From: Candidatus Brocadia sp.
GTDB lineage: Bacteria; Planctomycetota; Brocadiia; Brocadiales; Brocadiaceae
Length of the DNA stretch: 32,000 bases
Assembly: GCA_021650915.1 (NCBI GenBank)
Contig: CP091279.1
Coordinates: forward strand, 540,001-572,000
Direction: 5' to 3'
Below the pieces are notes generated by a model. The model searched no databases and was not told where the DNA came from. It worked only from the letters and a program-made list of their open reading frames with translations. The position numbers and the translations under genes are program-made. The stretch's first letter is position 1. Each line of letters begins with the position of its first letter. Of this stretch, positions 3,179 to 30,401 are shown piece by piece.

Positions 3179-5275
3179 ATGCTCGTTACCAAAATAGGAA
3201 CAAATACATCGTCACCGCCCGCATTACATCAGTCCGTTCAATATCTGAAAGGCGTCGGGCCAAGGCGAAGTGAAATCTATGGAAAGCTGGGAATCCATAC
3301 GATACGTGACATGCTCTTTTATTTCCCAAGGGATTACAAAGACCGCAGCCGTGTACAAAAGATTTCCGAGGCCAGGATAGGGTCAGAAATTACCATTTTC
3401 GGAAGAGTGCTTGGCGTTCAAACAAGGACGGCAAGAAGCCGGAAGAACATTCTGGAGGTCTTTGTCGGAGATGGAACCGGTTCAATTGCTGCGACCTGGT
3501 TTAATCAACCGTTTCTCGCAAAGAAATTTCATGTGGGCAACCGTGTCCTTCTGCATGGCAAGGTGGGGGCATATAAATATCTCCAGGTATTAAGTCCCGA
3601 ATATGAAATCATCCAGGATGAGGAAATGAATGTGAAGGATGGGGGCATCCTGCCAGTTTACCCGCTTACCGAACATATGAGTCAGGGTCATTTCCGAAAG
3701 ATCATGAAGGATGCGGTGTGCCATTTTGCCGGTGCTGTTGATGAAATACTCCCGACAGAGATTATCAGGAAAAATCAGTTGCTTTCCCTACGCGATGCAA
3801 TAGCAAATATCCACTTCCCTGAGACGCCTGAGCTCCTGAAGCAGGCAAGATTCAGACTGGTTTACGATGAATTGTTTACCCTTGAAGTGGCGATGGCTCT
3901 GAGAAAGCGCGGCATTCAGGCGGAAACGGGAATTTCGTTCAAGATCGGAGCCAACGTCGATGCGCATATCCGCAAGCTTATCCCTTTCCCCCTGACAAAT
4001 GCGCAGGAACGGGTAATTCGGGAAATTACTGAAGATATGCGCGGCAGCAAGCCCATGAACCGATTGTTGCAGGGTGACGTTGGTTCGGGGAAGACCGTTG
4101 TGGCAATGTATGCCATCCTTGCCGCCATTGCCAACGGTTACCAGACCGCTCTTATGGCGCCTACGGAAATACTGGCAAAACAGCATTTCCAGACTATACA
4201 GAAATACCTCCTTCACTCTCATGTCAGGACACACGTGCTGATAGGAGACACCAATCTTCGGCAGAGAAAGGACACCCTTGATCGCATCAAAACGGGGCAG
4301 GTCGATCTCGTTGTCGGAACGCATGCCCTTATCGAAGAAACGGTTCAGTTTCACCGGTTGGGTCTTGTGGTGATAGATGAACAGCACAAATTTGGCGTGG
4401 TGCAACGTCTGAATTTAAAAAAGAAGGGGGGGGCTCCCGACGTGCTGATCATGACGGCAACGCCCATTCCCCGCACCCTTTCTCTTACCTTATTTGGCGA
4501 TCTGGACTTTTCCCTCCTGGATGAAATGCCGCCTGGCCGCTCTCCGGTGAAGACCCTCTGGATCACCAAAGAAAAGGAGCTGGGCTCCTATCGTTTTATT
4601 CATGATGAAATTGTGAAGGGGCGGCAGGTGTTTATCGTCTATCCTCTTGTTGAAGAATCGGAATCCTTTGACCTGAAAGCAGCCGTTACCGAGGCGAAAA
4701 GACTGCAAAGTGAAGTCTTTCCGTCACACCGGGTGGGTTTGCTTCATGGCCAAATGAAGTCTTCCGATAAAGATAAGGTTATGGCGGATTTCAAGGAAAA
4801 AAAATATGATATTCTGGTCTCTACGGTGATCATTGAAGTAGGCATCGACATCCCTAACGCCACGGTAATGGTTATCGTTCATGCGGAACGGTTTGGCCTC
4901 TCCCAGCTCCACCAGTTACGCGGACGCATTGGGCGGGGAAGCGAGCAGTCGTATTGCCTGCTCTTTGGAAATCCCACCAGTTCCGTGTCGAACGAGCGGC
5001 TTAAGATTATGGCCATGACCAGTGATGGATTCAAAATTGCCGAGATGGATTTCAGGTTAAGGGGGCCAGGCGAATTTTTTGGGACACGTCAGCATGGATT
5101 GCCTGAGCTGAGAATCAGTGACCTCATAAAAGACTTTCCCATCCTCAAAAAAGCCCGCAGCGATGCCTTTGAGCTCGTATCGAAAGATCCTCAGCTTACG
5201 ATGGAAACCCACATCAGGATAAGAGAGCGGGTATTGGAAACCTTTAAAGACCGGTTAGAGCTCATGAACATTTGA
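3179..5275 (+). CDS. recG: ATP-dependent DNA helicase RecG
   Basis: N-terminus LQYLKGVGPRR...FYFPRDY is typical of RecG. An OB/wedge region follows. Helicase motifs are GDVGSGKT, DEQHKFGV, MTATPIPRT and QLHQLRGRIGRG. Confidence 0.95.
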   Translation: MLVTKIGTNTSSPPALHQSVQYLKGVGPRRSEIYGKLGIHTIRDMLFYFPRDYKDRSRVQKISEARIGSEITIFGRVLGVQTRTARSRKNILEVFVGDGTGSIAATWFNQPFLAKKFHVGNRVLLHGKVGAYKYLQVLSPEYEIIQDEEMNVKDGGILPVYPLTEHMSQGHFRKIMKDAVCHFAGAVDEILPTEIIRKNQLLSLRDAIANIHFPETPELLKQARFRLVYDELFTLEVAMALRKRGIQAETGISFKIGANVDAHIRKLIPFPLTNAQERVIREITEDMRGSKPMNRLLQGDVGSGKTVVAMYAILAAIANGYQTALMAPTEILAKQHFQTIQKYLLHSHVRTHVLIGDTNLRQRKDTLDRIKTGQVDLVVGTHALIEETVQFHRLGLVVIDEQHKFGVVQRLNLKKKGGAPDVLIMTATPIPRTLSLTLFGDLDFSLLDEMPPGRSPVKTLWITKEKELGSYRFIHDEIVKGRQVFIVYPLVEESESFDLKAAVTEAKRLQSEVFPSHRVGLLHGQMKSSDKDKVMADFKEKKYDILVSTVIIEVGIDIPNATVMVIVHAERFGLSQLHQLRGRIGRGSEQSYCLLFGNPTSSVSNERLKIMAMTSDGFKIAEMDFRLRGPGEFFGTRQHGLPELRISDLIKDFPILKKARSDAFELVSKDPQLTMETHIRIRERVLETFKDRLELMNI

Positions 5276-5282
5276 ATTTACG

Positions 5283-5430
5283 TAACACTTTAGTTTTTGA
5301 AAAATCCCAATAAAGGCGATGTTTACCATACCGTGCAGGGGCGAAGCATTTGCCATACATTGGCACACAGGTATTCACACCCCAGTCAGGCAAATGCTTC
5401 GCCCCTACCTTTTCAAAAACTAAAGTGTTA
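5283..5430. repeat. 148-bp nested inverted-repeat (MITE-like) element
   Basis: Perfect 21-bp outer arms: taacactttagtttttgaaaa (5283-5303) and its reverse complement (5410-5430). Perfect 18-bp inner arms: aggggcgaagcatttgcc (5337-5354) and its reverse complement (5389-5406). A TA dinucleotide lies at both termini. Confidence 0.75.
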
Positions 5431-5618
5431 TGATTTTTATCATCTTATTTTTAAAAGGCTGGATAATATGAAACGGTAGTATGAGCCATAAAAATCCCCT
5501 TTAATAAGGGGGCAAGGGGTTGTAAAATAGCCCTGAAAAGAAAAACATAATCTCGCTTTGCTAAGGGGGGATTAGCTTAACTTTGCAAAGAAGAGTAAAT
5601 GGGATGGATTCGTGAAGG

Positions 5619-5660
5619 CGTATCAGCGTATCAGAAGGGATATGATACGCCGTATATAAT
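5619..5660 (+). promoter_or_regulatory. candidate operator plus -10 box upstream of the TIR-STAND gene
   Basis: The 8-mer GCGTATCA occurs twice in tandem (5619-5626, 5627-5634) and once inverted (TGATACGC, 5643-5650). A consensus TATAAT follows at 5655-5660, then AAGGA (5674-5678) and ATG 5687. I see no good -35 box. Confidence 0.3.
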
Positions 5661-5686
5661 GAAATTTTCTGACAAGGAATGTGCAT

Positions 5687-7933
5687 ATGGAGTACGACAT
5701 TTTTTTCAGTTATCCGCATAAAGATGCGAAAGAAGTGCAGCATATCTTGCAAGCGCTTCAGGCTGAGGGATTGAATGTCTGGATAGATAAGAGCGAGATC
5801 CGCGACTACGAGAGCATCACCAGATCCATCGTTGGAGGGCTTGCGCATGCAAAAGTCCTTCTGGCATATTATTCCCTCAACTACTGGCGCTCCCGTGCAT
5901 GTCAGTGGGAGCTGACCGCAGGATTTCTTGCTGCGCAGCGCGAGGGTGATGCACGAAGGCGCATCCTGGTCATCAATCCGGAAGAGAAGGCAGGGCACAT
6001 CCATCCTGTGGAACTTCGGGATGAGCTCTTCCAGAAAGCGCCAGCGGATGCCGAAGCTCTGAGAAAGCTTGTCCAGAGCGTGAAAGCGCACGTCTCCGGG
6101 ATCAAAAACACGATCGGAGCGATCTACGCCCTCACACAGCCCCGCTGGTACGGCAGGAAAGGCGCAGGTTCGAACAGGTTCGTGGGGAGACTTCCCGATA
6201 TGTGGCGCATCCATTCGGCATTACATTCATCAGGAGTACCCGTAATAACCGGCGCTGTGGCAAGCGCGGTCGTCCAGGTGCAGGGTATGGGCGGTGTGGG
6301 AAAATCGCTCCTTGCCGAGGAATATGCCCTTCGCTATGCAGCGGCATTTCCAGGCGGTGTGTTTTGGCTCAGGGCGCTGGGGAACGATGATACAAAAACT
6401 GCAATGGGAGAGGAGCGTGAGGCAGAGCACATAAGGCAGATCTCGGATTTTGCCGTAAGCTTTGGCATATTTGTTAAGGACAGGAGCCCGGAGGAGATAG
6501 AAGCGGGTCTTGCAAGAGAGCTTGAGCGCAGAGGGCTGCCTTATCTATGGATTGCGGATGATGTCCCCTCAGGAATGGAAAGAGAGGCGCTGCACAAGTG
6601 GCTAGCGCCGCATCCCTCTGGAAAGACCCTTATCACCACGCGCACAAGGGAGTATAACGCACTGGGAACGCTCATTCCCCTGGGTGTCCTTGCGCCCGAA
6701 GAAGCGTATGAACTTCTGACCTTACGGCGTAAACCCGCAGGAAAGACGGAAGAAGACGCTGCACGTATGCTGACAGAGGATCTGGGGTATCATGCACTGG
6801 CTGTGGACGTTGCCGGCGCGCTGCTTGATGCAAAAAAAGGTTTAGAGTCTTTTGCTGAATTCAGAAAGAAACTTGTTGACACCCAAAGGGACGAACTGGA
6901 ATACGCCTCAAAACTGAAGGAAATTCTTCCAACCGGGCACGAGAAGAGTATCGCCAGCACCCTCCTTCGCAGTATCCGGCAACTTGAACCTGAGGGGCTT
7001 GATTTCCTGCGTCTGGCCTCTGTACTCGCTGTGGCTCCGATCCCTGCTTCTTTAGTTTCCGCAGTATTTTCAAAGGCAGATAATCTGGATGAAGAGGCAG
7101 GCAAGCATCGTGCAATGTTTGCCTTCGATCAGGTGGAGAATCTCTCTCTTGCAGAAGGGTCTGATGAGGAATCGGGAGCCAAAACCGTACACACCCTGGT
7201 CTCACGCACCGTGCGGTTTCACGAAACGATGCCTGATCGGATAGATTTAATTCAGGCTGCGGCGGTCAGTGTTCTCACTGATGGACTTTCAGTGATAGCA
7301 GACGGCAGAATCCACAGCGAACTCAAACTCGAAGTCGCACATGCAAGGCAGCTTGTGAACCGTGGTGATGACATTCCAACAGCGAACATTACAGGCTGGC
7401 TTGCAGGGTACGATCATCTGTATGGCGCATACCGATCTGCAGAAATGCTGCTTCGCAGGGAGCTGGACATACGAAACCGCATACTGGGCGATGTGCACCC
7501 GCATACGCTTCGCACCATGAACAACATTGCAGAAACGCTCAGGGCCCAGGGCGATCTTGCCAGCGCGCACAAACTCAACGAGCAGGTGCTTGAAATAAAG
7601 CGAAAGATACTGGGCGACGAGCACCCGGATACGCTTATGACCATGAACAACCTTGCTGAAATGCTCAGTGATCAGGGCGATCTTGCCGTCGCGCGCAAAC
7701 TCGAGGAACAGGTGCTTGAAAAAAGGCGAAGGATACTGGGTGATGAGCACCCGGATACGAGTCTTTCCGCATGGAACCTCGTTGTGACGCTTCTTCATAT
7801 CGGTGATGCTGCAGAGGCTATGGAGATTCTCAGCAAACATCTTCTCTGGCTGCTTTCTCGTGACCCTGCCACGCTTGAAGCGAACCAGCAGAAGATACGG
7901 GAGATGATCATTGAGAGTATACCAAAGAAGTAA
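5687..7933 (+). CDS. TIR / NB-ARC / TPR STAND NTPase (NLR-like candidate immune protein)
   Basis: The ORF track starts at GTG 5681; ATG 5687 has the better RBS spacing. TIR region: YDIFFSYPHKD...VWIDKSEI...YYSLNYWRSRACQWEL, with a Glu codon at 5909-5911 in the catalytic-Glu position. Walker A GMGGVGKS is at 6284-6307 and Walker B is LWIADDV. LITTRTRE is RNBS-B-like, LGYHALAVDVAG is GLPLA-like, and DFLRLASVLA is winged-helix-like. The C-terminus has three or more 42-aa KLC-type TPRs (ILGDxHPDTLxxMNNLAxxL). Confidence 0.9.
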   Translation: MEYDIFFSYPHKDAKEVQHILQALQAEGLNVWIDKSEIRDYESITRSIVGGLAHAKVLLAYYSLNYWRSRACQWELTAGFLAAQREGDARRRILVINPEEKAGHIHPVELRDELFQKAPADAEALRKLVQSVKAHVSGIKNTIGAIYALTQPRWYGRKGAGSNRFVGRLPDMWRIHSALHSSGVPVITGAVASAVVQVQGMGGVGKSLLAEEYALRYAAAFPGGVFWLRALGNDDTKTAMGEEREAEHIRQISDFAVSFGIFVKDRSPEEIEAGLARELERRGLPYLWIADDVPSGMEREALHKWLAPHPSGKTLITTRTREYNALGTLIPLGVLAPEEAYELLTLRRKPAGKTEEDAARMLTEDLGYHALAVDVAGALLDAKKGLESFAEFRKKLVDTQRDELEYASKLKEILPTGHEKSIASTLLRSIRQLEPEGLDFLRLASVLAVAPIPASLVSAVFSKADNLDEEAGKHRAMFAFDQVENLSLAEGSDEESGAKTVHTLVSRTVRFHETMPDRIDLIQAAAVSVLTDGLSVIADGRIHSELKLEVAHARQLVNRGDDIPTANITGWLAGYDHLYGAYRSAEMLLRRELDIRNRILGDVHPHTLRTMNNIAETLRAQGDLASAHKLNEQVLEIKRKILGDEHPDTLMTMNNLAEMLSDQGDLAVARKLEEQVLEKRRRILGDEHPDTSLSAWNLVVTLLHIGDAAEAMEILSKHLLWLLSRDPATLEANQQKIREMIIESIPKK
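7481..7800 (+). repeat. 126-bp tandem repeats encoding the TPR units of the STAND protein
   Basis: Units start at 7481, 7607 and 7733, each beginning atactggg(c/t)ga. My hand alignment of units 1 and 2 gives 105/126 identical nucleotides. Confidence 0.8.
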
Positions 7934-8014
7934 TTAGCCTGAGCAGCAGCAGTAAGTAATGTAGTATCTTCTAAAAACAATTTTGACATTTTTAACAAAA
8001 ATATGAATAAAATT

Positions 8015-8047
8015 AACCCTGTCAGGGTTTTAAACCCTGACAGGGTT
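8015..8047. repeat. 33-bp perfect dyad (15-bp stem, 3-nt loop)
   Basis: aaccctgtcagggtt (8015-8029), tta, aaccctgacagggtt (8033-8047). Unit 1 is the exact reverse complement of unit 2, and each unit is also internally palindromic. A second imperfect hairpin, cctgtgcgtg-atcg-cacgcagacagg, lies at 8067-8092. Confidence 0.7.
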
Positions 8048-8181
8048 GACTCGCGAATTCCGCCTGCCTGTGCGTGATCGCACGCAGACAGGTGCTTCGG
8101 ACTTTGTCTTTTCCGACTTGTTCGGGTTAGAGATCACCCATTTATTTTCAGTGGCATGCAATTGACGGCAGAACGAGGTTT

Positions 8182-8213
8182 TTTGGTGGATTCGCTCCGC
8201 GTAATCCACCCTT
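8182..8213. repeat. REP-like hairpin (GGTGGAT...ATCCACC family)
   Basis: ggtggatt (8185-8192) pairs with aatccacc (8203-8210) around the loop cgctccgcgt. It is the same family as the three copies at 11489-11678. Confidence 0.7.
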
Positions 8214-8309
8214 ATATAGTATTACCGTATAAAATCTTTCTTTTTTTGCAAGTTTTTTTCCAACCCTATTTACCCTTTATCAGAAGTTGCAGTTTGTTTA
8301 TGAGAGAAG

Positions 8310-8469
8310 GATTGCTTCGCTTCGCTCGCAATGACAACGTACAATATGTCATCGGAGGCATAGCCAGTGTCATTGCGTGTGTAAATGTGCTGATTGCTGT
8401 GTAATGGAGGAACAGTATTGCATCAACGACATAGCCAGTGTCATTGCGAGGGTCTTGTCCGAAGCAATC
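8310..8469. repeat. inverted-repeat element (gattgcttcg...ctcgcaatgaca / tgtcattgcgag...cgaagcaatc) with internal 19-bp direct repeat
   Basis: The left arm (8310-8336) and right arm (8439-8469) are imperfect reverse complements. catagccagtgtcattgcg is repeated directly at 8359-8377 and 8430-8448. Translation gives the ...LLRFARNDN... type junk peptide seen in the track ORFs. Confidence 0.65.
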
Positions 8470-8550
8470 TCCCGCTTTCACAACGGAGAATTGGTTACGA
8501 CGGTACCGCGCCATGCATTGTTGGCAGGGGCAGAGAGTTATGACCGCATG

Positions 8551-11118
8551 TTATATCAATCCCCGTTCATAATTTCCCATCGTTGCGTATTTCATTGTCG
8601 TCCTGTTTTGAATGCCGGAGAATATGTCCTCTATCATTTCAGGCGTATAATCCCGCCAACACAAATCGATCCTGAAATCCCGTTGTCCTGCCTCAAGGAG
8701 TTTTGGAATACGGTGGATGATGGAAAATGGCCTTTCGCCAATGACTACGGTCTTGCATCGGTCATTGATGGCGACAAATCGGTCGCCATGTTCATTTTCG
8801 ACCGTTACCTGCCTGAAACCACACTCGGATATGCCGGGGCATCTTCTTTTCATATTCGCCCACACACAGGTCTCGGAGATAAAAAGGGGGGTGTCCTGGT
8901 AGATAATGAGATCGGCATCTGCGGAATACAGTGTTTGGAGGTTTTCTTTATCATCCTCCGGAGATAAGGTATACCGGCAAAAACCTAATTTCCTGAGTTG
9001 TGCAGCAGAAAGCGGATTCAGACAATACAGCGGGTAATCGGCATACCATAGCACGTCTTTTGTCTCAAAGATATCCAAAGCGCCCAGATTAGAAAGCTGG
9101 AACTGCCGAAAACCCAGCGCCATCAGCTTCTGCACGATTATTTTTATATCCCCAAACGTTTCAAGCCCATTCCCTCTGTCGCGCATAATGACCGGCAATG
9201 AAAATACAATCGTGTCTTGTAACGGTAACAAGGTATTTATGACATCGTATGCTTCTGTTGAGCCGGTAGCAGTTTCAACCGGCAACAGCTTTTTCAACAC
9301 TGCTTTGTCACTTCCTTTGGGAGAGGCAGAGAGAAGGGGAGACATATCAGTTTTTTTTGTTGACCCAAGGGCCATGAGAACTTCACGTGACAATACCACA
9401 TAGATCTTATAAATCTTTTCTAAAGGAACGTGATTCAAATACTGCAATTTATCTATCTTCAGGGATAACCTGATCCCATCTTCTCCTGAAAATCTCTTGC
9501 ATGGATTGCGGTATTCAAGAGTTACTTCCTTTATCCAGTTTTTTATGCCATGAGACATTCCTTCTTTCTCCTTCTGGTACGCTACGGACAGATTCTGGAA
9601 AAAATCTCTCCGAATTTCGTTCAACGTACTGAAGGGGATAAAGAGTTTTTCAGAGACATCGGTATGAATATCCCTGAGCTCAAACGGTGTTGCTCCCAGA
9701 CGGGAAAAGGCGTCTCTGATATGCTCCTCTCCAATTGCCCAATGAATACCCTGCTCCAGTTTTACCGGGTAATCCTTTGTCAGGGTGACATGCCTCGTTA
9801 TTCCCTTTATCGATACACCATGAGGTCTTATCTTCACTTCCAAATTCACCGGTATCCTGGTGGGAATAAGCTTTTTCGGAACTTTTAGACTCAGCGTCTC
9901 CCTGACCTTTTGCGAAGAGATTAGATAGAGTTTTGCTCCTGGCATAAAACGTTGTTCTGAACCAATGGCTGCGATATCGCCCGCGTGTATTTCAAAGACA
10001 CGCCTTCCGTCAATTTCAAGGCTTTTAACATGCAGCAGCGATGGTTCTGCCTGAGAATTATCAAACACCTGCAACAAATCCCTCACACCAATATCGTTAT
10101 CTGCCCGTATCACAACTTTTCCCCTTCTCGTGTCGATTACTTCACCGGCATAGGAACCGACATTTGCGGGATATGATGGGTTAATGGTGTCTGTTGACTT
10201 GACCTGATACTGTGTACCGTTTTTGGTCTTCCGGGAATCTTCAGGAAATACATACGCATGGGTCGTTTCCCTGCTGAATACGGTCCTTATCCTGTGCATG
10301 GTCTCATCTAAGCCGGGCAGCCTGCCGTCAATCGCCTGCCGGTAGGCGTGTGTTACAACGGCGACGTATTCGGGCGATTTCATACGGCCTTCTATCTTGA
10401 ATGCATGGACACCCGCAGCTATCAGCTTGTTAATCTGTGAAATGGTGAGGAGGTCTTTCATAGAAAAAAGATAGCCACCATCACCCGATGACGTTTTGTA
10501 CCGCATCCTGCAGGGCTGGGCGCACCTGCCGCGATTTCCACTCCTGCCGCCGGTCATACTGCTGAAAAAGCAGAGACCCGAATAGGAATAACACAAAGCC
10601 CCGTGGACAAAGACCTCTGTCTCCATCGCGGTATTCCGGGCAATATTCGTTATTTCATCCATCGGCAATTCACGGGCAAGAACAACGCGCTGAAAACCCA
10701 TCCGTTCCAGTTGTTTCACTCCTGCAAGATTGTGGATGGTCATCTGCGTGCTGGCATGAAGGCTGAACTGCGGGAATCGGGATTGTAGTAAAAAGAGCAG
10801 CCCAAGATCCTGGAGTATCAGGGTGTCGGGCTGAAGTTCTTCCACCGCGATTAAGAGGTCGACAATCTTTTCCAGTTCCTGGGTTTTCATGAGGGTATTA
10901 AAGGCAATATAAATCTTAACCGCCCTCTTGCGGGCATGGGCAATGGCCTTGCTGGCGTCTTCAAGGGTAAAATTCTCCGCCGCTGCGCGGGCGCTGAAAT
11001 CCGGCAAACCAAAATAGATGGCATCGGCCCCGTTTTCAAGGGCGGCAAAAAAGCACTCCATATTGCCTGCCGGTGAGAGTAATTCAGGTTTTTTTTGTTG
11101 GGTATTGGGGGAGGACAT
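8551..11118 (-). CDS. peptidase U32 family protein, long form
   Basis: N-terminus ELLSPAGNMECFFAALENGADAIYFGL..FSAR is the canonical start of the U32 family. It contains the E..VHGALC.SYSG.C and GRSGNRG.C.QPCR motifs. The roughly 450-aa C-terminal extension is typical of long U32 proteins. Confidence 0.9.
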   Translation of the reverse strand: MSSPNTQQKKPELLSPAGNMECFFAALENGADAIYFGLPDFSARAAAENFTLEDASKAIAHARKRAVKIYIAFNTLMKTQELEKIVDLLIAVEELQPDTLILQDLGLLFLLQSRFPQFSLHASTQMTIHNLAGVKQLERMGFQRVVLARELPMDEITNIARNTAMETEVFVHGALCYSYSGLCFFSSMTGGRSGNRGRCAQPCRMRYKTSSGDGGYLFSMKDLLTISQINKLIAAGVHAFKIEGRMKSPEYVAVVTHAYRQAIDGRLPGLDETMHRIRTVFSRETTHAYVFPEDSRKTKNGTQYQVKSTDTINPSYPANVGSYAGEVIDTRRGKVVIRADNDIGVRDLLQVFDNSQAEPSLLHVKSLEIDGRRVFEIHAGDIAAIGSEQRFMPGAKLYLISSQKVRETLSLKVPKKLIPTRIPVNLEVKIRPHGVSIKGITRHVTLTKDYPVKLEQGIHWAIGEEHIRDAFSRLGATPFELRDIHTDVSEKLFIPFSTLNEIRRDFFQNLSVAYQKEKEGMSHGIKNWIKEVTLEYRNPCKRFSGEDGIRLSLKIDKLQYLNHVPLEKIYKIYVVLSREVLMALGSTKKTDMSPLLSASPKGSDKAVLKKLLPVETATGSTEAYDVINTLLPLQDTIVFSLPVIMRDRGNGLETFGDIKIIVQKLMALGFRQFQLSNLGALDIFETKDVLWYADYPLYCLNPLSAAQLRKLGFCRYTLSPEDDKENLQTLYSADADLIIYQDTPLFISETCVWANMKRRCPGISECGFRQVTVENEHGDRFVAINDRCKTVVIGERPFSIIHRIPKLLEAGQRDFRIDLCWRDYTPEMIEDIFSGIQNRTTMKYATMGNYERGLI

Positions 11119-11132
11119 AAATATCTTGATGG

Positions 11133-11197
11133 GGGGGGAAGCATTTGCTATCCGGGATATAAGGTTGCGTTCAAATTGTCAGCAAATGCTTCGCCTC
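11133..11197. repeat. hairpin repeat of the GAAGCATTTGC family
   Basis: gaagcatttgct (11138-11149) pairs with agcaaatgcttc (11181-11192) around a 31-nt loop. The arms are near-identical to the inner arms of the 5337-5406 element. A G8 tract at 11131-11138 abuts it. Confidence 0.7.
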
Positions 11198-11212
11198 TAC
11201 GTATGATCGCAA

Positions 11213-19244: not shown

Positions 19245-20608
19245 AAAGAGAGACTTGGTTAAAGAAAAAGCCCTCCAAATATGGTAAAAAATAGTTTTGA
19301 TACAAGAAACTAAACCATAAAGAAAAGGAGGGCTATATGGGAGCAACCCCATGCACAGATGGTATCACAATAGAATTTGGTTGTTAAATTCGGGTTGAAT
19401 TAAAGGACGGCAGCCTGGAGTCGATTCTCAAGGCATTTTGCAAGATACTGCCGGAGATATTAAGGGATTTTATTCAGAAGATCGTGGTTGGTTTTGGTGA
19501 GAGTGCGATGGCGCAATCACGGAAGCCATTTTGCTGCGACGAATGTGGGAATGACAAGGAGTTTATCTGGAAGACGAGGCATGGAAAAGAGACGAAGATA
19601 CTGACGGTCTTTCAGTGGTTGAGATTAGAGCAGTTGCAGGTGCAGTGCAAGAGGTGCGGTCATAAGATGTATATAACGCGAAAGCTTCTGGGGATGGAGC
19701 GGATGAAGCGAATACCACCGGAGACGTATCGGAAGCTTGGGCTGGTAGGATCGTTAACGACCTACCGGGTAGCGAAGAAGATCGTGTCGATGTTTGGCTG
19801 GACAGTAGACAAGATGACGATATGGAAATCGGTACAAAAGACGGCAGCAGAGATAGATTTTCAACTCGACGAGAAGGGACTTCCCCTGGGAGAAGCAGAC
19901 GGGACAGGGGTAGGGATTAAGGGGATAGCCAAACGAGGCAAGGAACTCAAGGTCTTTGTGCAATACAAGAGCGGTGGAGGGGTGAGAGTGGCAGGGCTTG
20001 ACATAGGGGATTACAACGGTAGTTGGGATACGCTGTTTGGTAAGAGTGTTAAGGTGTTCAGGAAGTTTTCCCAGTTTCTTTTGATAACCGATGGCGACAC
20101 CTCTATTTTGGATAGTTTGAAAGGTAAGATCAAGGTGCTTGTACAGAGATGTTTGTGGCATATTCCGTATCAGGCAAAGTATGTATTGTGGCAAGATGGG
20201 GTCAAGAGCAAGGGGAAAGAATGGCTGGAGGTGATGTCGGAGCTTATGGAGGTCTGTGCGATACGGCCATTGGTTGATTGTCAGAAGACCATCGAGAAAA
20301 TGATAGAGTCCAAGAGGAAACGATTGGATGCGGTGATTCAGCATTGTTTGTCGAAGGGATATACTCATACCGCATCCTATCTTGAGAATGCCAGGCCTGA
20401 TATGTTTACGGCGATAGAAAAGAGGCTCAATGGCAGAACGACAAGTAAAGTAGAGCGCGTCATGCGTACGGTTAACCTGCGGGTGAATGTGAGCAAATGG
20501 AGTGTTGCCGGGGCGCTGAACGTTACCAAAATTCGGCTTGCCTATTACTACAACGGCTTTGATGCGTGACAACTATACATTGGAGGACTTTTCTCAGGTC
20601 TCCACTTG
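19245..20608 (+). mobile_element. insertion sequence, ISKra4/ISLre2 (UPF0236)-like; boundaries approximate
   Basis: It contains a single transposase ORF. Imperfect terminal inverted repeats are gagac..gaaaaagccctccaaatatgg (about 19249-19284) and the reverse complement of cattggaggacttttctcaggtctcc (about 20578-20603). Confidence 0.5.
19484..20569 (+). CDS. DDE transposase (ISKra4/ISLre2-like), possibly inactivated
   Basis: A zinc-ribbon pair CCDECG...CKRCG is followed by acidic candidates ADGTG and ITDGD, then a C-terminal TTSKVERVMRTVNLR helix. The same frame is open upstream to a strong RBS and ATG at 19337, but is interrupted by TAA at 19385-19387. Confidence 0.7.
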   Translation: MVGFGESAMAQSRKPFCCDECGNDKEFIWKTRHGKETKILTVFQWLRLEQLQVQCKRCGHKMYITRKLLGMERMKRIPPETYRKLGLVGSLTTYRVAKKIVSMFGWTVDKMTIWKSVQKTAAEIDFQLDEKGLPLGEADGTGVGIKGIAKRGKELKVFVQYKSGGGVRVAGLDIGDYNGSWDTLFGKSVKVFRKFSQFLLITDGDTSILDSLKGKIKVLVQRCLWHIPYQAKYVLWQDGVKSKGKEWLEVMSELMEVCAIRPLVDCQKTIEKMIESKRKRLDAVIQHCLSKGYTHTASYLENARPDMFTAIEKRLNGRTTSKVERVMRTVNLRVNVSKWSVAGALNVTKIRLAYYYNGFDA

Positions 20609-28742: not shown

Positions 28743-30401
28743 ATGAAAAATAAGGTAGTCCATTTCACGCGGATTTTCATTTTCCTCTTACTGGCCATCT
28801 TCATCGGGTGTACCACGGTAAAATATTATCCCGTTAATTTTATTGAATCGCTTCAACATCCTACAAAATTCCCGGAAGTCTTTTCATCTAACGTGCAAAA
28901 CATTGAGGAGATTGCCAGCAAAAATCCGCTGAGTGAAAATGAAGATATAAAGATTACGACTGTTGGTGAAAATAAAAATTCAAGCATGCATCTTATCCAG
29001 ATTCGTGAAAATGGAGAGTTGCTCCCGCATTACCATAAACGACACGATGAAGTTATCTATGTAAAAAAAGGGAGTGGCATTGCCACGCTTGATGGCACAC
29101 GATATCTGGTAAAGTCTGGATCTATCCTGCAAATTCCTGGTAAAACCGTGCATAAATTTATCAATACGGGTGATGAGCCATTTATTGCGGTATCGATCTT
29201 TTCTCCGCCCTTTGACGGAAGAGATGAAAAATTCATTAAGGGAAAAAAGAAGACGCCCAGGGGCAGAAAAGAAGAGAAAAGGCTTGCAACGAAAACACCG
29301 GAAAAGGAGTCTGAACAAGACCAGACGTCATCAGAGAAAGAAGTTGATGAGGAAGAAATCCAAACTACTGCGGCAAAATCACAGCGGGTTGCAGACAACA
29401 AACGAAAGGAATATCGTCCTGAAGAAATAATTTCGGCGACAGAAGAATCGTCTGCACTTTTCGACAAAAACAAAATAGCCGGAAAGAAAAGGCAGCCAAA
29501 GGAAACACCTTCTCCTGAAATGCCTTCAATCGATATCAAGGATCTGCATGAATCACTTACACGCTTATTGAATCTTAAAGAAGAAGGGACAATCTCCGCG
29601 GAAGAATATGAGGAAAAGAAAGATGCCCTTATGAAGGGCAATGACATTGGTGTACTTCCTGAATCAAAAGGATATGTAAAAAAGAAAATACCCCTGGAAG
29701 ACGAGGAAGTTATACCACCGCTGGTAAAGTCCGGATTTGTGGACAAAGATTTCTCTGACGAAACGCAGAACAGAATGACGGATACACCATCTGTATCTGG
29801 CGTAAAGGAACCCGTTGTGCATGAATATCCAACGCAAGGAGAGGAATTATCATCCGAAGACAAGCTCAAACTTTTGGAAGAAATGAAACAGGAAGGCTTG
29901 ATTACCGAGGAGGATTTTGAAAACAAGGAAAAAGAGTTATCCGGCACAATGAAAGAGAAAACAGAACCCGTGATGCCGAAAGGCATCTCTGAAGACGAAC
30001 GGATAGCAGAATTAAAAGAACTCTATGACGAGGGGCTTATAACAGAAGATGATTATAAGCATAAGCTGGAAGAGATTACCGATGGTCAACCGGGGAATGG
30101 TTTAACCGCCGGCGCTCCCCATGAGGAGGAAGGTGACTCCGCGCTATCTGACGGGACTCCTGACAACGAAAAAGTCAAAGATCTGAAAGAACTCTACGAC
30201 GACGGACTTATCACGGAAGAAGACTATCATTTCAAGCTGAAAGAACTTTTTGGTGAAGAAAAAAAGGGTTCCTCTCTCGGTTTTTTCCCTGAAAAGGGCT
30301 TAGAAAATGACAAACTCTCAGAATTAGAGGAAATGAAAAAAGAAGGACTTATTTCAGATGAGGACTATGAATTTAAAAAGTCGCAATTGCTAGACAATTA
30401 A
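28743..30401 (+). CDS. probable lipoprotein: cupin domain + long acidic linker + five SHOCT repeats
   Basis: Lipobox-like LAIFIGC. Cupin motifs are HYHKRHDEVIYVKKGSG...GSILQIPGKTVHKFINTG. Five copies of L.E(L/M)(K/Y).EGLI(T/S).E(D/E)(Y/F)..K(K/L)..L lie between nt 29541 and 30398. Confidence 0.75.
   Translation: MKNKVVHFTRIFIFLLLAIFIGCTTVKYYPVNFIESLQHPTKFPEVFSSNVQNIEEIASKNPLSENEDIKITTVGENKNSSMHLIQIRENGELLPHYHKRHDEVIYVKKGSGIATLDGTRYLVKSGSILQIPGKTVHKFINTGDEPFIAVSIFSPPFDGRDEKFIKGKKKTPRGRKEEKRLATKTPEKESEQDQTSSEKEVDEEEIQTTAAKSQRVADNKRKEYRPEEIISATEESSALFDKNKIAGKKRQPKETPSPEMPSIDIKDLHESLTRLLNLKEEGTISAEEYEEKKDALMKGNDIGVLPESKGYVKKKIPLEDEEVIPPLVKSGFVDKDFSDETQNRMTDTPSVSGVKEPVVHEYPTQGEELSSEDKLKLLEEMKQEGLITEEDFENKEKELSGTMKEKTEPVMPKGISEDERIAELKELYDEGLITEDDYKHKLEEITDGQPGNGLTAGAPHEEEGDSALSDGTPDNEKVKDLKELYDDGLITEEDYHFKLKELFGEEKKGSSLGFFPEKGLENDKLSELEEMKKEGLISDEDYEFKKSQLLDN

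Follow-up and report, generated by a model that had tools for sequence, protein, structure and literature searches.

Introduction

Proteins that join a TIR domain, an NB-ARC nucleotide-binding module and tetratricopeptide repeats (TPRs) in one chain are known from plants, where they form the TNP class, and a TIR-NB-TPR arrangement has also been recorded in bacteria on several occasions (PMC9806590, PMC7159879). The maize protein ZmTNP-IIa causes cell death that depends on its Glu and is independent of EDS1 (PMC9806590). Among bacteria, Kaur et al. (2020) described a TIR-AP-ATPase gene coupled to the processing of FxSxx peptides, in systems enriched in aggregate-forming bacteria, planctomycetes included (PMC7159879). 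Avs proteins have TIR domains among their effectors, and the characterised cases are activated when phage proteins bind to them directly (PMC13581612). A survey of 589 prokaryotic STAND clades, AP-ATPases included, regards a clade as defence-associated if most of its members carry an effector domain or if it is enriched beside known defence systems (Lee 2026; PMC13581612). Here we analyse a gene of this architecture at positions 5687-7933 (plus strand) of a stretch of 32,000 nucleotides (nt) from Candidatus Brocadia sp. (contig CP091279.1, positions 540,001 to 572,000), hereafter the window, to which all coordinates refer. Because of its anatomy and the behaviour of Avs, plant TIR-NB-ARC-LRR (TNL) resistosomes, SARM1 and plant TNPs, we consider it probable (about 0.6) that the gene encodes a single polypeptide that functions as an NLR-like conflict sensor and belongs to the AP-ATPase/NB-ARC branch of STAND NTPases.

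The architecture itself is known already. A first-pass annotation, made by a model from the letters of the window, had assumed as much, and such proteins are indeed catalogued in Kaur 2020 (PMC7159879), Johanndrees 2022 (PMC9806590) and Lee 2026 (PMC13581612). What is new here is the evidence for an accessory status of the gene, the divergence island in which it lies, an allelic series in the number of its repeat units and the spread of its family across domains of life.

Domain architecture of the protein

The coding sequence is complete, with an uninterrupted frame of 748 codons plus stop; all features of the gene given below lie on the plus strand. A Shine-Dalgarno-like AAGGAA (5675-5680), read from the sequence, stands 6 nt upstream of the ATG at 5687, and the other possible start is a GTG at 5681. 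The open reading frame (ORF) list and the translation bear out the intact frame claimed by the first-pass annotation, together with its motifs DIFFSY, CQWEL, LWIADDV, LITTRTR and LGYHALAV and its exact placing of Glu75 (5909-5911), GMGGVGKS (amino acids, aa, 200-207; 6284-6307) and Lys206 (6302-6304). The profile search that it had proposed recovers TIR_2, NB-ARC, TPR_10 and TPR_12 from Pfam. An identical protein from Candidatus Brocadia sp. is deposited as UJS21207.1, under the NCBI label 'toll/interleukin-1 receptor domain-containing protein'; 24 contigs, which come from many samples, carry it.

The TIR domain (aa 1 to about 138, 5687-6100) is recognised by TIR_2 over aa 5-127 (E=6.9e-18, 65.7 bits, cutoff 28), and in our AlphaFold2 (AF2) model this region has a flavodoxin-like beta/alpha pattern. 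It carries the motifs D4-I-F-F-S8-Y9 (beta-A), W32-x-D34 and R70-A-C72-Q73-W-E75-L-T (alpha-C). By sequence, the nearest solved TIRs in the PDB are Cat1, PdTIR, AbTIR, related bacterial TIRs and Roq1, all of which we take to be NADases, with their aligned Glu at the known catalytic position. The codon of the putative catalytic Glu75 lies at 5909-5911, and the residue aligns with the Glu of AbTIR 'NYEL' (8g83), PdTIR 'KEL' (3h16), Cat1 'DEL' (9mud), 7uwg/7uxr and Roq1, as expected from the earlier placing of the CQWEL Glu at the catalytic position. The nearest solved TIRs have been described as NADases (PMC9806590). Residue counts given as fractions refer, here and below, to 120 homologs at 44-80% identity: R70-A-C72-Q73-W-E75-L76-T77 is essentially invariant, and E75 is present in 119/119 sequences, as well as in 48/49 when the set reaches down to about 39% identity.

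The NB-ARC profile matches aa 194-413 (profile positions 19-238 of 248, E=3.4e-9, 36.8 bits, cutoff 23.5). Before the P-loop stands F165-V-G167-R168 (6179-6190), with F165 and G167 invariant and R168 kept in at least 90% of homologs; we read it as the 'hhGR' motif of STAND NTPases, which reportedly goes back to work by Leipe in 2004. The nucleotide-binding domain (NBD; aa 195-335, 6269-6691), placed from Pfam NB-ARC, motif conservation and profile matches, contains the Walker A motif G200-M-G-G-V-G-K206-S (6284-6307; K206 in 120/120), the Walker B motif L287-W-I-A-D291-D292 (6545-6562; D291 in 120/120, D292 in 119/120) and the RNBS-B or sensor-1 'TTR', T317-T318-R319 (6635-6643; R319 in 120/120). 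This TTR motif is described for the NB-ARC domains of plant TNPs and TNLs (PMC9806590). The ARC helical domain and winged helix follow (aa 336-512, 6692-7222), with a GLPL-like L366-G-Y-H369-A-L-A372, in which His replaces the GLPL Pro in nearly every homolog (H369, 119/120), and an MHD-like V501-H502-T-L (H502 in 119/119); in the AF2 model aa 337-485 are helical and aa 489-501 form a beta-hairpin. From the winged helix a helical linker (aa 513-560, 7223-7366; AF2 helices 516-557), whose H552 is invariant over 61 aligned sequences, leads to the TPRs. Pfam score, motif set and the fold of NBD, first helical domain and winged-helix domain all place the protein among the STAND AP-ATPase/NB-ARC proteins, so that the assignment of its NTPase to the NB-ARC/Apaf-1 branch by the first-pass annotation agrees with both profile and fold.

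The C-terminal kinesin-light-chain (KLC)-type TPR array (aa 561-725, 7367-7861) is recognised over about aa 560-725 by TPR_10 (2.6e-33) and TPR_12 (1.5e-31), and it matches KLC1 in the PDB at 2.4e-23 with the single sequence and at 2.5e-41 with the family profile, which upholds the earlier description of this end of the protein. Three 42-aa 'LGDxHPxT' units start at aa 600, 642 and 684, the final unit being a conserved C-terminal cap. In the DNA, the units are encoded by a 126-nt tandem repeat (7481-7759; 2.2 copies, 84% match), seen both as family D1 of a repeat search and by Tandem Repeats Finder, which is the substrate for gain and loss of TPR units. Besides KLC1, the family profile finds Roq1 (2e-16), AfsR (1.3e-9) and Apaf-1 (1.2e-8) in the PDB.

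The AF2 model was built from a 61-sequence alignment (pLDDT 85, pTM 0.74), and Foldseek matches it at a probability of 1.00 to 6mfv, 7dfv, 3shf/3sfz, 8jol, 9h2l and 9cc8. The best match is the archaeal STAND-TPR protein PH0952 (6mfv, 5.2e-12), then the RPP1 resistosome (7dfv, 1.3e-11); Apaf-1, CED-4 and the wheat and NRC resistosomes are further fold matches, with kinesin light chain for the TPR part. The structure comparison suggested by the first-pass annotation thus does lead to Apaf-1, CED-4 and RPP1. For the nucleotide-binding oligomerisation domain (NOD) plus TPRs, PH0952 and Apaf-1 (3shf, query-normalised TM-score 0.40) are the top neighbours, although PH0952 is without a TIR effector and Apaf-1 has a CARD and WD40 repeats.

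Because E75 and the Walker A/B, TTR and MHD-like residues are near-invariant, the protein appears, as far as its sequence tells, to have the full equipment of an active NADase TIR, with a functional STAND switch to drive it.

Proposed mechanism and the output of the TIR domain

If the protein works like these receptors, it would rest as a closed monomer, presumably ADP-bound. A ligand, most likely a protein or peptide of a phage or another invader, would bind to the C-terminal KLC-type array. Binding would lift autoinhibition, upon which the NOD, with K206, D291/D292, R319 and H502, would exchange its nucleotide and probably oligomerise. The N-terminal TIRs would be brought together in this way and form composite active sites, where Glu75 could cleave NAD+; the NAD+ depletion that follows would stop the growth of the infected cell or kill it, which amounts to abortive infection. 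TIRs fused to Avs or standing alone have been treated as NAD-depleting effectors (bioRxiv 10.64898/2025.12.03.692087).

The TIR domain might instead generate a signal, with a cyclic ADP-ribose (cADPR) isomer or another messenger derived from ADP-ribose switching on an effector encoded elsewhere, as in Thoeris or the TNL-EDS1 pathway. AbTIR, a maker of 2'cADPR, and the TIRs of plant TNLs are among the nearest solved TIRs; the ThsB_TIR profile of Pfam matches weakly, exactly at its cutoff (21.2 bits, cutoff 21.2); and at one of the homologous loci a second TIR fragment lies close by, together with genes of TPR-S/MAP3K_TRAF_bd and of patatin-like type. A TPR domain in the Thoeris effector ThsI was also earlier predicted to have a part in bacterial TIR signalling (bioRxiv 10.64898/2025.12.03.692087). 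Signalling TIRs are, however, normally operon-linked to their effector (same source), whereas no ThsA-like, SLOG, SAVED or Macro effector adjoins the gene in the window or at eight of the nine loci, and no neighbour is conserved. We therefore regard a signal-generating TIR as unlikely. Thoeris was also considered as a system in its own right and rejected, since neither ThsA nor another Thoeris effector occurs in the window and ThsB_TIR is matched at threshold only. The first-pass annotation had seen no partner beside the gene; neighbour annotation and PADLOC agree that no ThsA, SIR2, nuclease or other partner gene adjoins it in the window.

Relation to known receptors

The first-pass annotation spoke of a plant-TNL domain order. 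The TIR-NB-ARC part of this statement stands; the TNL label does not, since TPRs define the TNP class and TNLs carry leucine-rich repeats (LRRs). Plant TNPs (XTNX; ZmTNP-IIa) have the same order of TIR, NB-ARC and TPR as the Brocadia protein, and both possess a P-loop, TTR, Walker B, a GLPL-like motif, an MHD-like His and the catalytic Glu. Compared with TNPs as these are described, the Brocadia protein differs in its KLC-type 42-aa consensus repeats, which vary in number. The likeness between bacterial proteins and plant TNPs has been found in the NB domain and not in the TIR or the TPRs (PMC9806590), so that orthology of TNPs with the Brocadia protein is putative at best. With the TNL resistosomes RPP1 and Roq1, to which it is matched as given above, the protein has TIR and NB-ARC in common and likely also the logic of a TIR NADase activated by oligomerisation. 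The TNL sensor consists of LRRs plus C-JID in place of a TPR array, and the EDS1/helper-NLR pathway is not found in bacteria. The overall TM-score with RPP1 is low (0.24), because the domains match but not the whole assembly.

Avs1-5, Avs7-21 and bNACHT proteins follow the same logic, with effector, STAND NTPase and TPR-like sensor in one protein. The sensor of Avs is a large, irregular TPR domain, whereas that of the Brocadia protein is a short, regular KLC-type array, and the Brocadia NTPase falls in the AP-ATPase/NB-ARC clade. Fungal NB-ARC-TPR NLRs (Podospora; PDB 4y6c/4y6w) are closer in their repeats: they combine NB-ARC with 42-aa KLC-like units that are alike within a protein and polymorphic in number. 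Their N-terminal domains are usually HET, HeLo or PNP_UDP, their role lies in eukaryotic allorecognition or immunity, and any common descent of the whole gene is hypothetical.

The best match to a curated family is FxsT, the TPR protein of the actinobacterial FxSxx-COOH system (NCBIfam NF040586; 204.3 bits over aa 163-510, the NOD region), which has the same TIR-AP-ATPase-TPR architecture. This raises the possibility that the protein regulates conflict or cell death without any virus: its TPRs would sense an endogenous or conspecific cue, such as a processed peptide, a factor from kin or competitors, or damage, and cells in dense anammox aggregates would then die altruistically or become dormant. 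Its analogues would be the fungal NB-ARC-TPR NLRs that act in allorecognition and the systems that Kaur et al. (2020) linked to multicellularity, and besides the FxsT match, the units resemble the near-identical TPRs of a Podospora putative kinesin light chain (4y6c/4y6w). Polymorphism in repeat number is typical of fungal allorecognition NLRs and speaks for the same possibility. So does the link of TIR-AP-ATPases to FxSxx peptides, with the enrichment in aggregate formers (PMC7159879). Membership in the FxSxx-COOH system was nonetheless rejected, as the score lies below the equivalog cutoff of 300 and the match covers profile positions 6-328 of 830 only. No radical-SAM/SPASM maturase, vWA-MoxR gene or plausible FxSxx-COOH precursor was found near the gene, and the ORFs that end in FxSxx are all chance ORFs within other genes, with none in the flanking intergenic regions. 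On balance, a sensor of endogenous cues seems fairly unlikely to us.

Repeat-number alleles and a divergent locus

The cluster at 90% identity contains alleles of 748, 837 and 921 aa with 3, 5 and 7 'LGDxHPxT' units, in exact 42-aa steps. All three sit at the same amylase-recG-[gene]-U32-carbonic anhydrase-M28 locus and are 97.6% identical over their first 575 residues. That a collapse of repeats during assembly caused the differences in unit number is unlikely, because the forms recur in independent assemblies: the 748-aa form on its 24 contigs and the 921-aa form on 6 contigs, including two GenBank assemblies. Across the family the number of units runs from 1 to 14 (median 6-7). Units of one protein resemble each other more closely (71%) than units of different proteins do (60%), and positions 3, 10, 17, 20, 26, 30 and 39 of the 42-aa unit are the variable ones by per-position entropy.

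The window strain might then carry a decaying allele, whose sensor was shortened by repeat loss and no longer recognises its ligand. Three units are few next to the 5 and 7 of the orthologous alleles and to the family median, and other cluster members (P0264, and P0269 plus P0268) are broken within the repeat array. The gene is also split in a draft assembly of Ca. Brocadia fulgida (LAQJ01000035), which is 99.99% identical to the window across 12 kb: a 1-nt deletion at window position 6327, in a CCC run, yields KKO20972.1 ('TIR') and KKO20971.1 ('kinesin light chain KLC'). This deletion is probably a sequencing error and possibly a real frameshift variant. The breaks in other assemblies lie in repeats or a homopolymer, spots where assembly errors are common. 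Moreover, the ORF of the window is intact, with its conserved C-terminal cap and all catalytic residues, and the same 748-aa sequence recurs in many samples, as stated above. Short arrays are not confined to this strain either: three anchors or fewer were found in 15 of the 121 sequences counted (exactly three in 8), and the array of B. carolinensis is short too. A weakened allele is thus, in our opinion, very unlikely.

Divergence, identity and dN/dS were determined between the window and the 921-aa strain. The flanking genes are close to identical: recG has 99.4% nucleotide identity (dS 0.021, dN 0.002, dN/dS 0.09), the U32 peptidase gene 99.8% (dS 0.003, dN 0.002, dN/dS 0.44) and the carbonic anhydrase gene 99.9% (dS 0.006, dN and dN/dS both about 0). 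The TIR-NOD part (aa 1-575) is 98.0% identical (dS 0.050, dN 0.011), with a dN/dS of 0.22 that implies purifying selection, and the TPR array is about 88% identical. Difference counts in 500-nt bins delimit a divergence island with sharp bounds at 5001-8500, which comprises the gene and both intergenic flanks and holds 84 differences, against 16 in the other ~12.5 kb compared. Most strain differences (34 in 8001-8500) lie in the 617 nt of intergenic DNA that separate the gene from the U32 peptidase gene. The island fits allele exchange or long-lived allelic lineages, like immune-receptor loci, although it does not prove immune selection.

Several repeats occur in this region. Directly after the recG stop there are two nested perfect inverted repeats, with arms of 21 nt (5283-5303/5410-5430) and 18 nt (5337-5354/5389-5406), which together form a 148-nt hairpin at 5283-5430 (RNA minimum free energy -70 kcal/mol, z = -12). 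A related hairpin with the same 18-mer, at 2-3 mismatches, lies upstream of the U32 peptidase gene (11132-11198). The two may belong to a family of repetitive extragenic palindromes or miniature inverted-repeat transposable elements (REP/MITE-like), or may be large terminators. A MITE-bounded cassette around the gene was considered but is not supported, as the single related second hairpin in the window leaves the gene unbracketed. Past the gene, 82 nt after its stop codon, lies a perfect 16+16-nt palindrome (8015-8047; AACCCTGTCAGGGTTT/AAACCCTGACAGGGTT) that is terminator-like on the minus strand. Logan short-read contigs that carry the gene begin inside the 5283-5430 hairpin and end at this palindrome. 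A 42-nt direct repeat (8341-8382 and 8412-8453; 79% identical, 71-nt spacing) is found in the 617-nt intergenic region mentioned above. Finally, some records of metagenome-assembled genomes assign the 921-aa allele to an 'Anaerolineales bacterium', although its contig has the Brocadia amylase-recG-U32 locus at 99% identity; it looks like a mis-binned contig.

Family distribution and genomic context

A HMMER search with residues 1-545 (TIR and NOD, with the TPRs left out) against 1.84 billion cluster representatives returned 757 proteins (50%-identity clusters) at E<=1e-30, and the top 150 are all colinear over TIR and NOD. Of the 49 members that were scanned for domains, 47 have TIR_2, 40 have NB-ARC and 48 have TPR_10. 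Named members include those of Brocadia, Competibacteraceae, other Pseudomonadota, Methanoperedens, Methanomarinus (ANME-2) and Methanosarcinales, the archaeal ones at 60-68% identity. On a 72-kb Methanoperedens contig, a homolog of 63% identity lies near genes for GHMP kinases, a polyprenyl synthase and an AA_kinase, which, read from their Pfam families, would form an archaeal-type mevalonate pathway. With such neighbours the cross-domain distribution is real, and it suggests that the family has passed between bacteria and archaea which share anaerobic nitrogen- and methane-cycling habitats.

In the window, the gene lies between recG (3179-5275) and the U32 peptidase gene (8551-11118, minus strand). 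The other genes are of housekeeping type: amylase-like, carbonic anhydrase, M28 peptidase, ABC-F, cytochromes c, CbiG, pyruvate kinase and ThiF. An exact RecG look-up returned the same species only. Next to recG the gene is absent in five other anammox or Brocadia-like lineages (RecG 69-79% identical; genome and metagenome contigs). The U32 and amylase genes are missing there as well; rearrangement affects the entire locus, so that no clean 'empty site' was identifiable. In B. carolinensis the homolog (80%) is found at a different locus, between unrelated genes. The gene thus appears to be accessory and strain-variable in Candidatus Brocadia, and its absence beside recG and its relocation in B. 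carolinensis argue against a conserved syntenic housekeeping gene, an outcome that the first-pass annotation had named as fatal to its proposal.

Across the nine distinct loci that we examined there is no conserved neighbour, and the gene always stands solo. Conflict-type genes (toxin-antitoxin, AbiEi, IS110/Y1 transposases, DNA methyltransferase) lie within 8-10 kb at 6 of the 7 non-Brocadia loci. Behind the homolog at one of these nine loci come an ORF for a TPR fragment, proteins of MAP3K_TRAF_bd/TPR-S and patatin-like type, a muramidase and another small ORF with TIR_2. The ensemble looks like a conflict-system cluster, which might include a receptor for a TIR signal.

The protein could also have a role outside conflict, as a STAND regulator of NAD metabolism or stress, by SARM1-like sensing of metabolites, or as a scaffold in which the TIR is an interaction module. 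Its flanks in the window are housekeeping genes, outside any defence island. Many bacterial STAND proteins are regulators, AfsR being one that the family profile matches (see above), and the TIR-NOD part shows strong conservation from phylum to phylum, with 48-68% identity among Brocadia, Competibacteraceae and archaea. Yet TIR is the sole output domain, with none that binds DNA according to Pfam, and its catalytic Glu is near-invariant. The variable location of the gene and its absence from the recG locus of related species speak against such a role, and a strain divergence hot spot with repeat polymorphism is atypical of housekeeping regulators. We consider a non-conflict role highly improbable.

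Weighing the conflict-sensor reading

Several observations weigh against the reading as an NLR-like conflict sensor. Among the models of PADLOC-DB 2.0, to which the Avs7-21 models (PMC13581612) do not belong, none that contains an NTPase matches, so that Avs and bNACHT were rejected as families. Matches are weak and concern the TIR part only (PDC-S66 1.1e-9, SAVED_TIR 2.6e-7, ThsB ~1e-4); PADLOC assigns no system, and the first-pass annotation had likewise refrained from naming a defence family. With PADLOC and annotation, no other defence gene was found in the 32-kb window, which deprives the reading of guilt by association here. A motif scan (RACQWEL plus the P-loop pattern) detected no family member on IMG/VR viral contigs, and the searchable literature yielded no experimental study of any member. 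The three units of the window allele lie at the low end of the family range and possibly make a weakened sensor, and the frameshifted copy in the B. fulgida draft has to be counted here as well. Because the units are near-consensus KLC-type, whereas the Avs proteins characterised so far have large and irregular sensors, a phage protein as ligand is not implied. Lastly, hot-spot divergence can come from recombination alone, in the absence of immune selection.

A broader picture is possible, and we offer it tentatively. The family may represent a large prokaryotic clade of TIR/NB-ARC/KLC-TPR NLRs, whose modular array diversifies between strains by whole 42-aa units, as in fungal NB-ARC-TPR NLRs, and which has been exchanged between anammox bacteria and methane-oxidising archaea (60-68%). 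Plant TNPs and fungal NB-ARC-TPR receptors could have in such a clade their prokaryotic counterpart, or even their source, and its ligand is perhaps not a phage protein.

If the proposed mechanism holds, the family would offer a compact one-gene model of NLRs and TNPs, in which a bacterial protein of 750-1,200 aa contains the TIR-NB-ARC-TPR logic. TNPs are the most conserved and functionally the least understood of the plant TIR receptors, and they would have this logic in common with the Brocadia family. The 3-, 5- and 7-unit alleles are a natural series for asking how the number of TPR units sets ligand specificity or autoinhibition. To our knowledge, the phage interactions of anammox bacteria, which drive wastewater nitrogen removal, are almost unknown; the system would be among the first for defence or cell death described in them. 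Close homologs in Methanoperedens and ANME archaea bear on the question of how NLR-like genes spread horizontally from one domain of life to another.

Other features of the window

Two further ORFs in the window deserve mention. The 361-aa ORF at 19484-20569 has no Pfam match and reaches 183.6 bits with an ISH6-family transposase model, below the cutoff of 240; it lies in the segment of strongest GC skew (0.35). ISH6 is an insertion sequence (IS) family named from haloarchaea, and an archaeal-type IS in Brocadia is worth noting as the TIR-NB-ARC-TPR family is also archaeal. At 28743-30401, a 552-aa protein combines Cupin_2, three SHOCT motifs and a GvpG-like segment, which is an unusual architecture.

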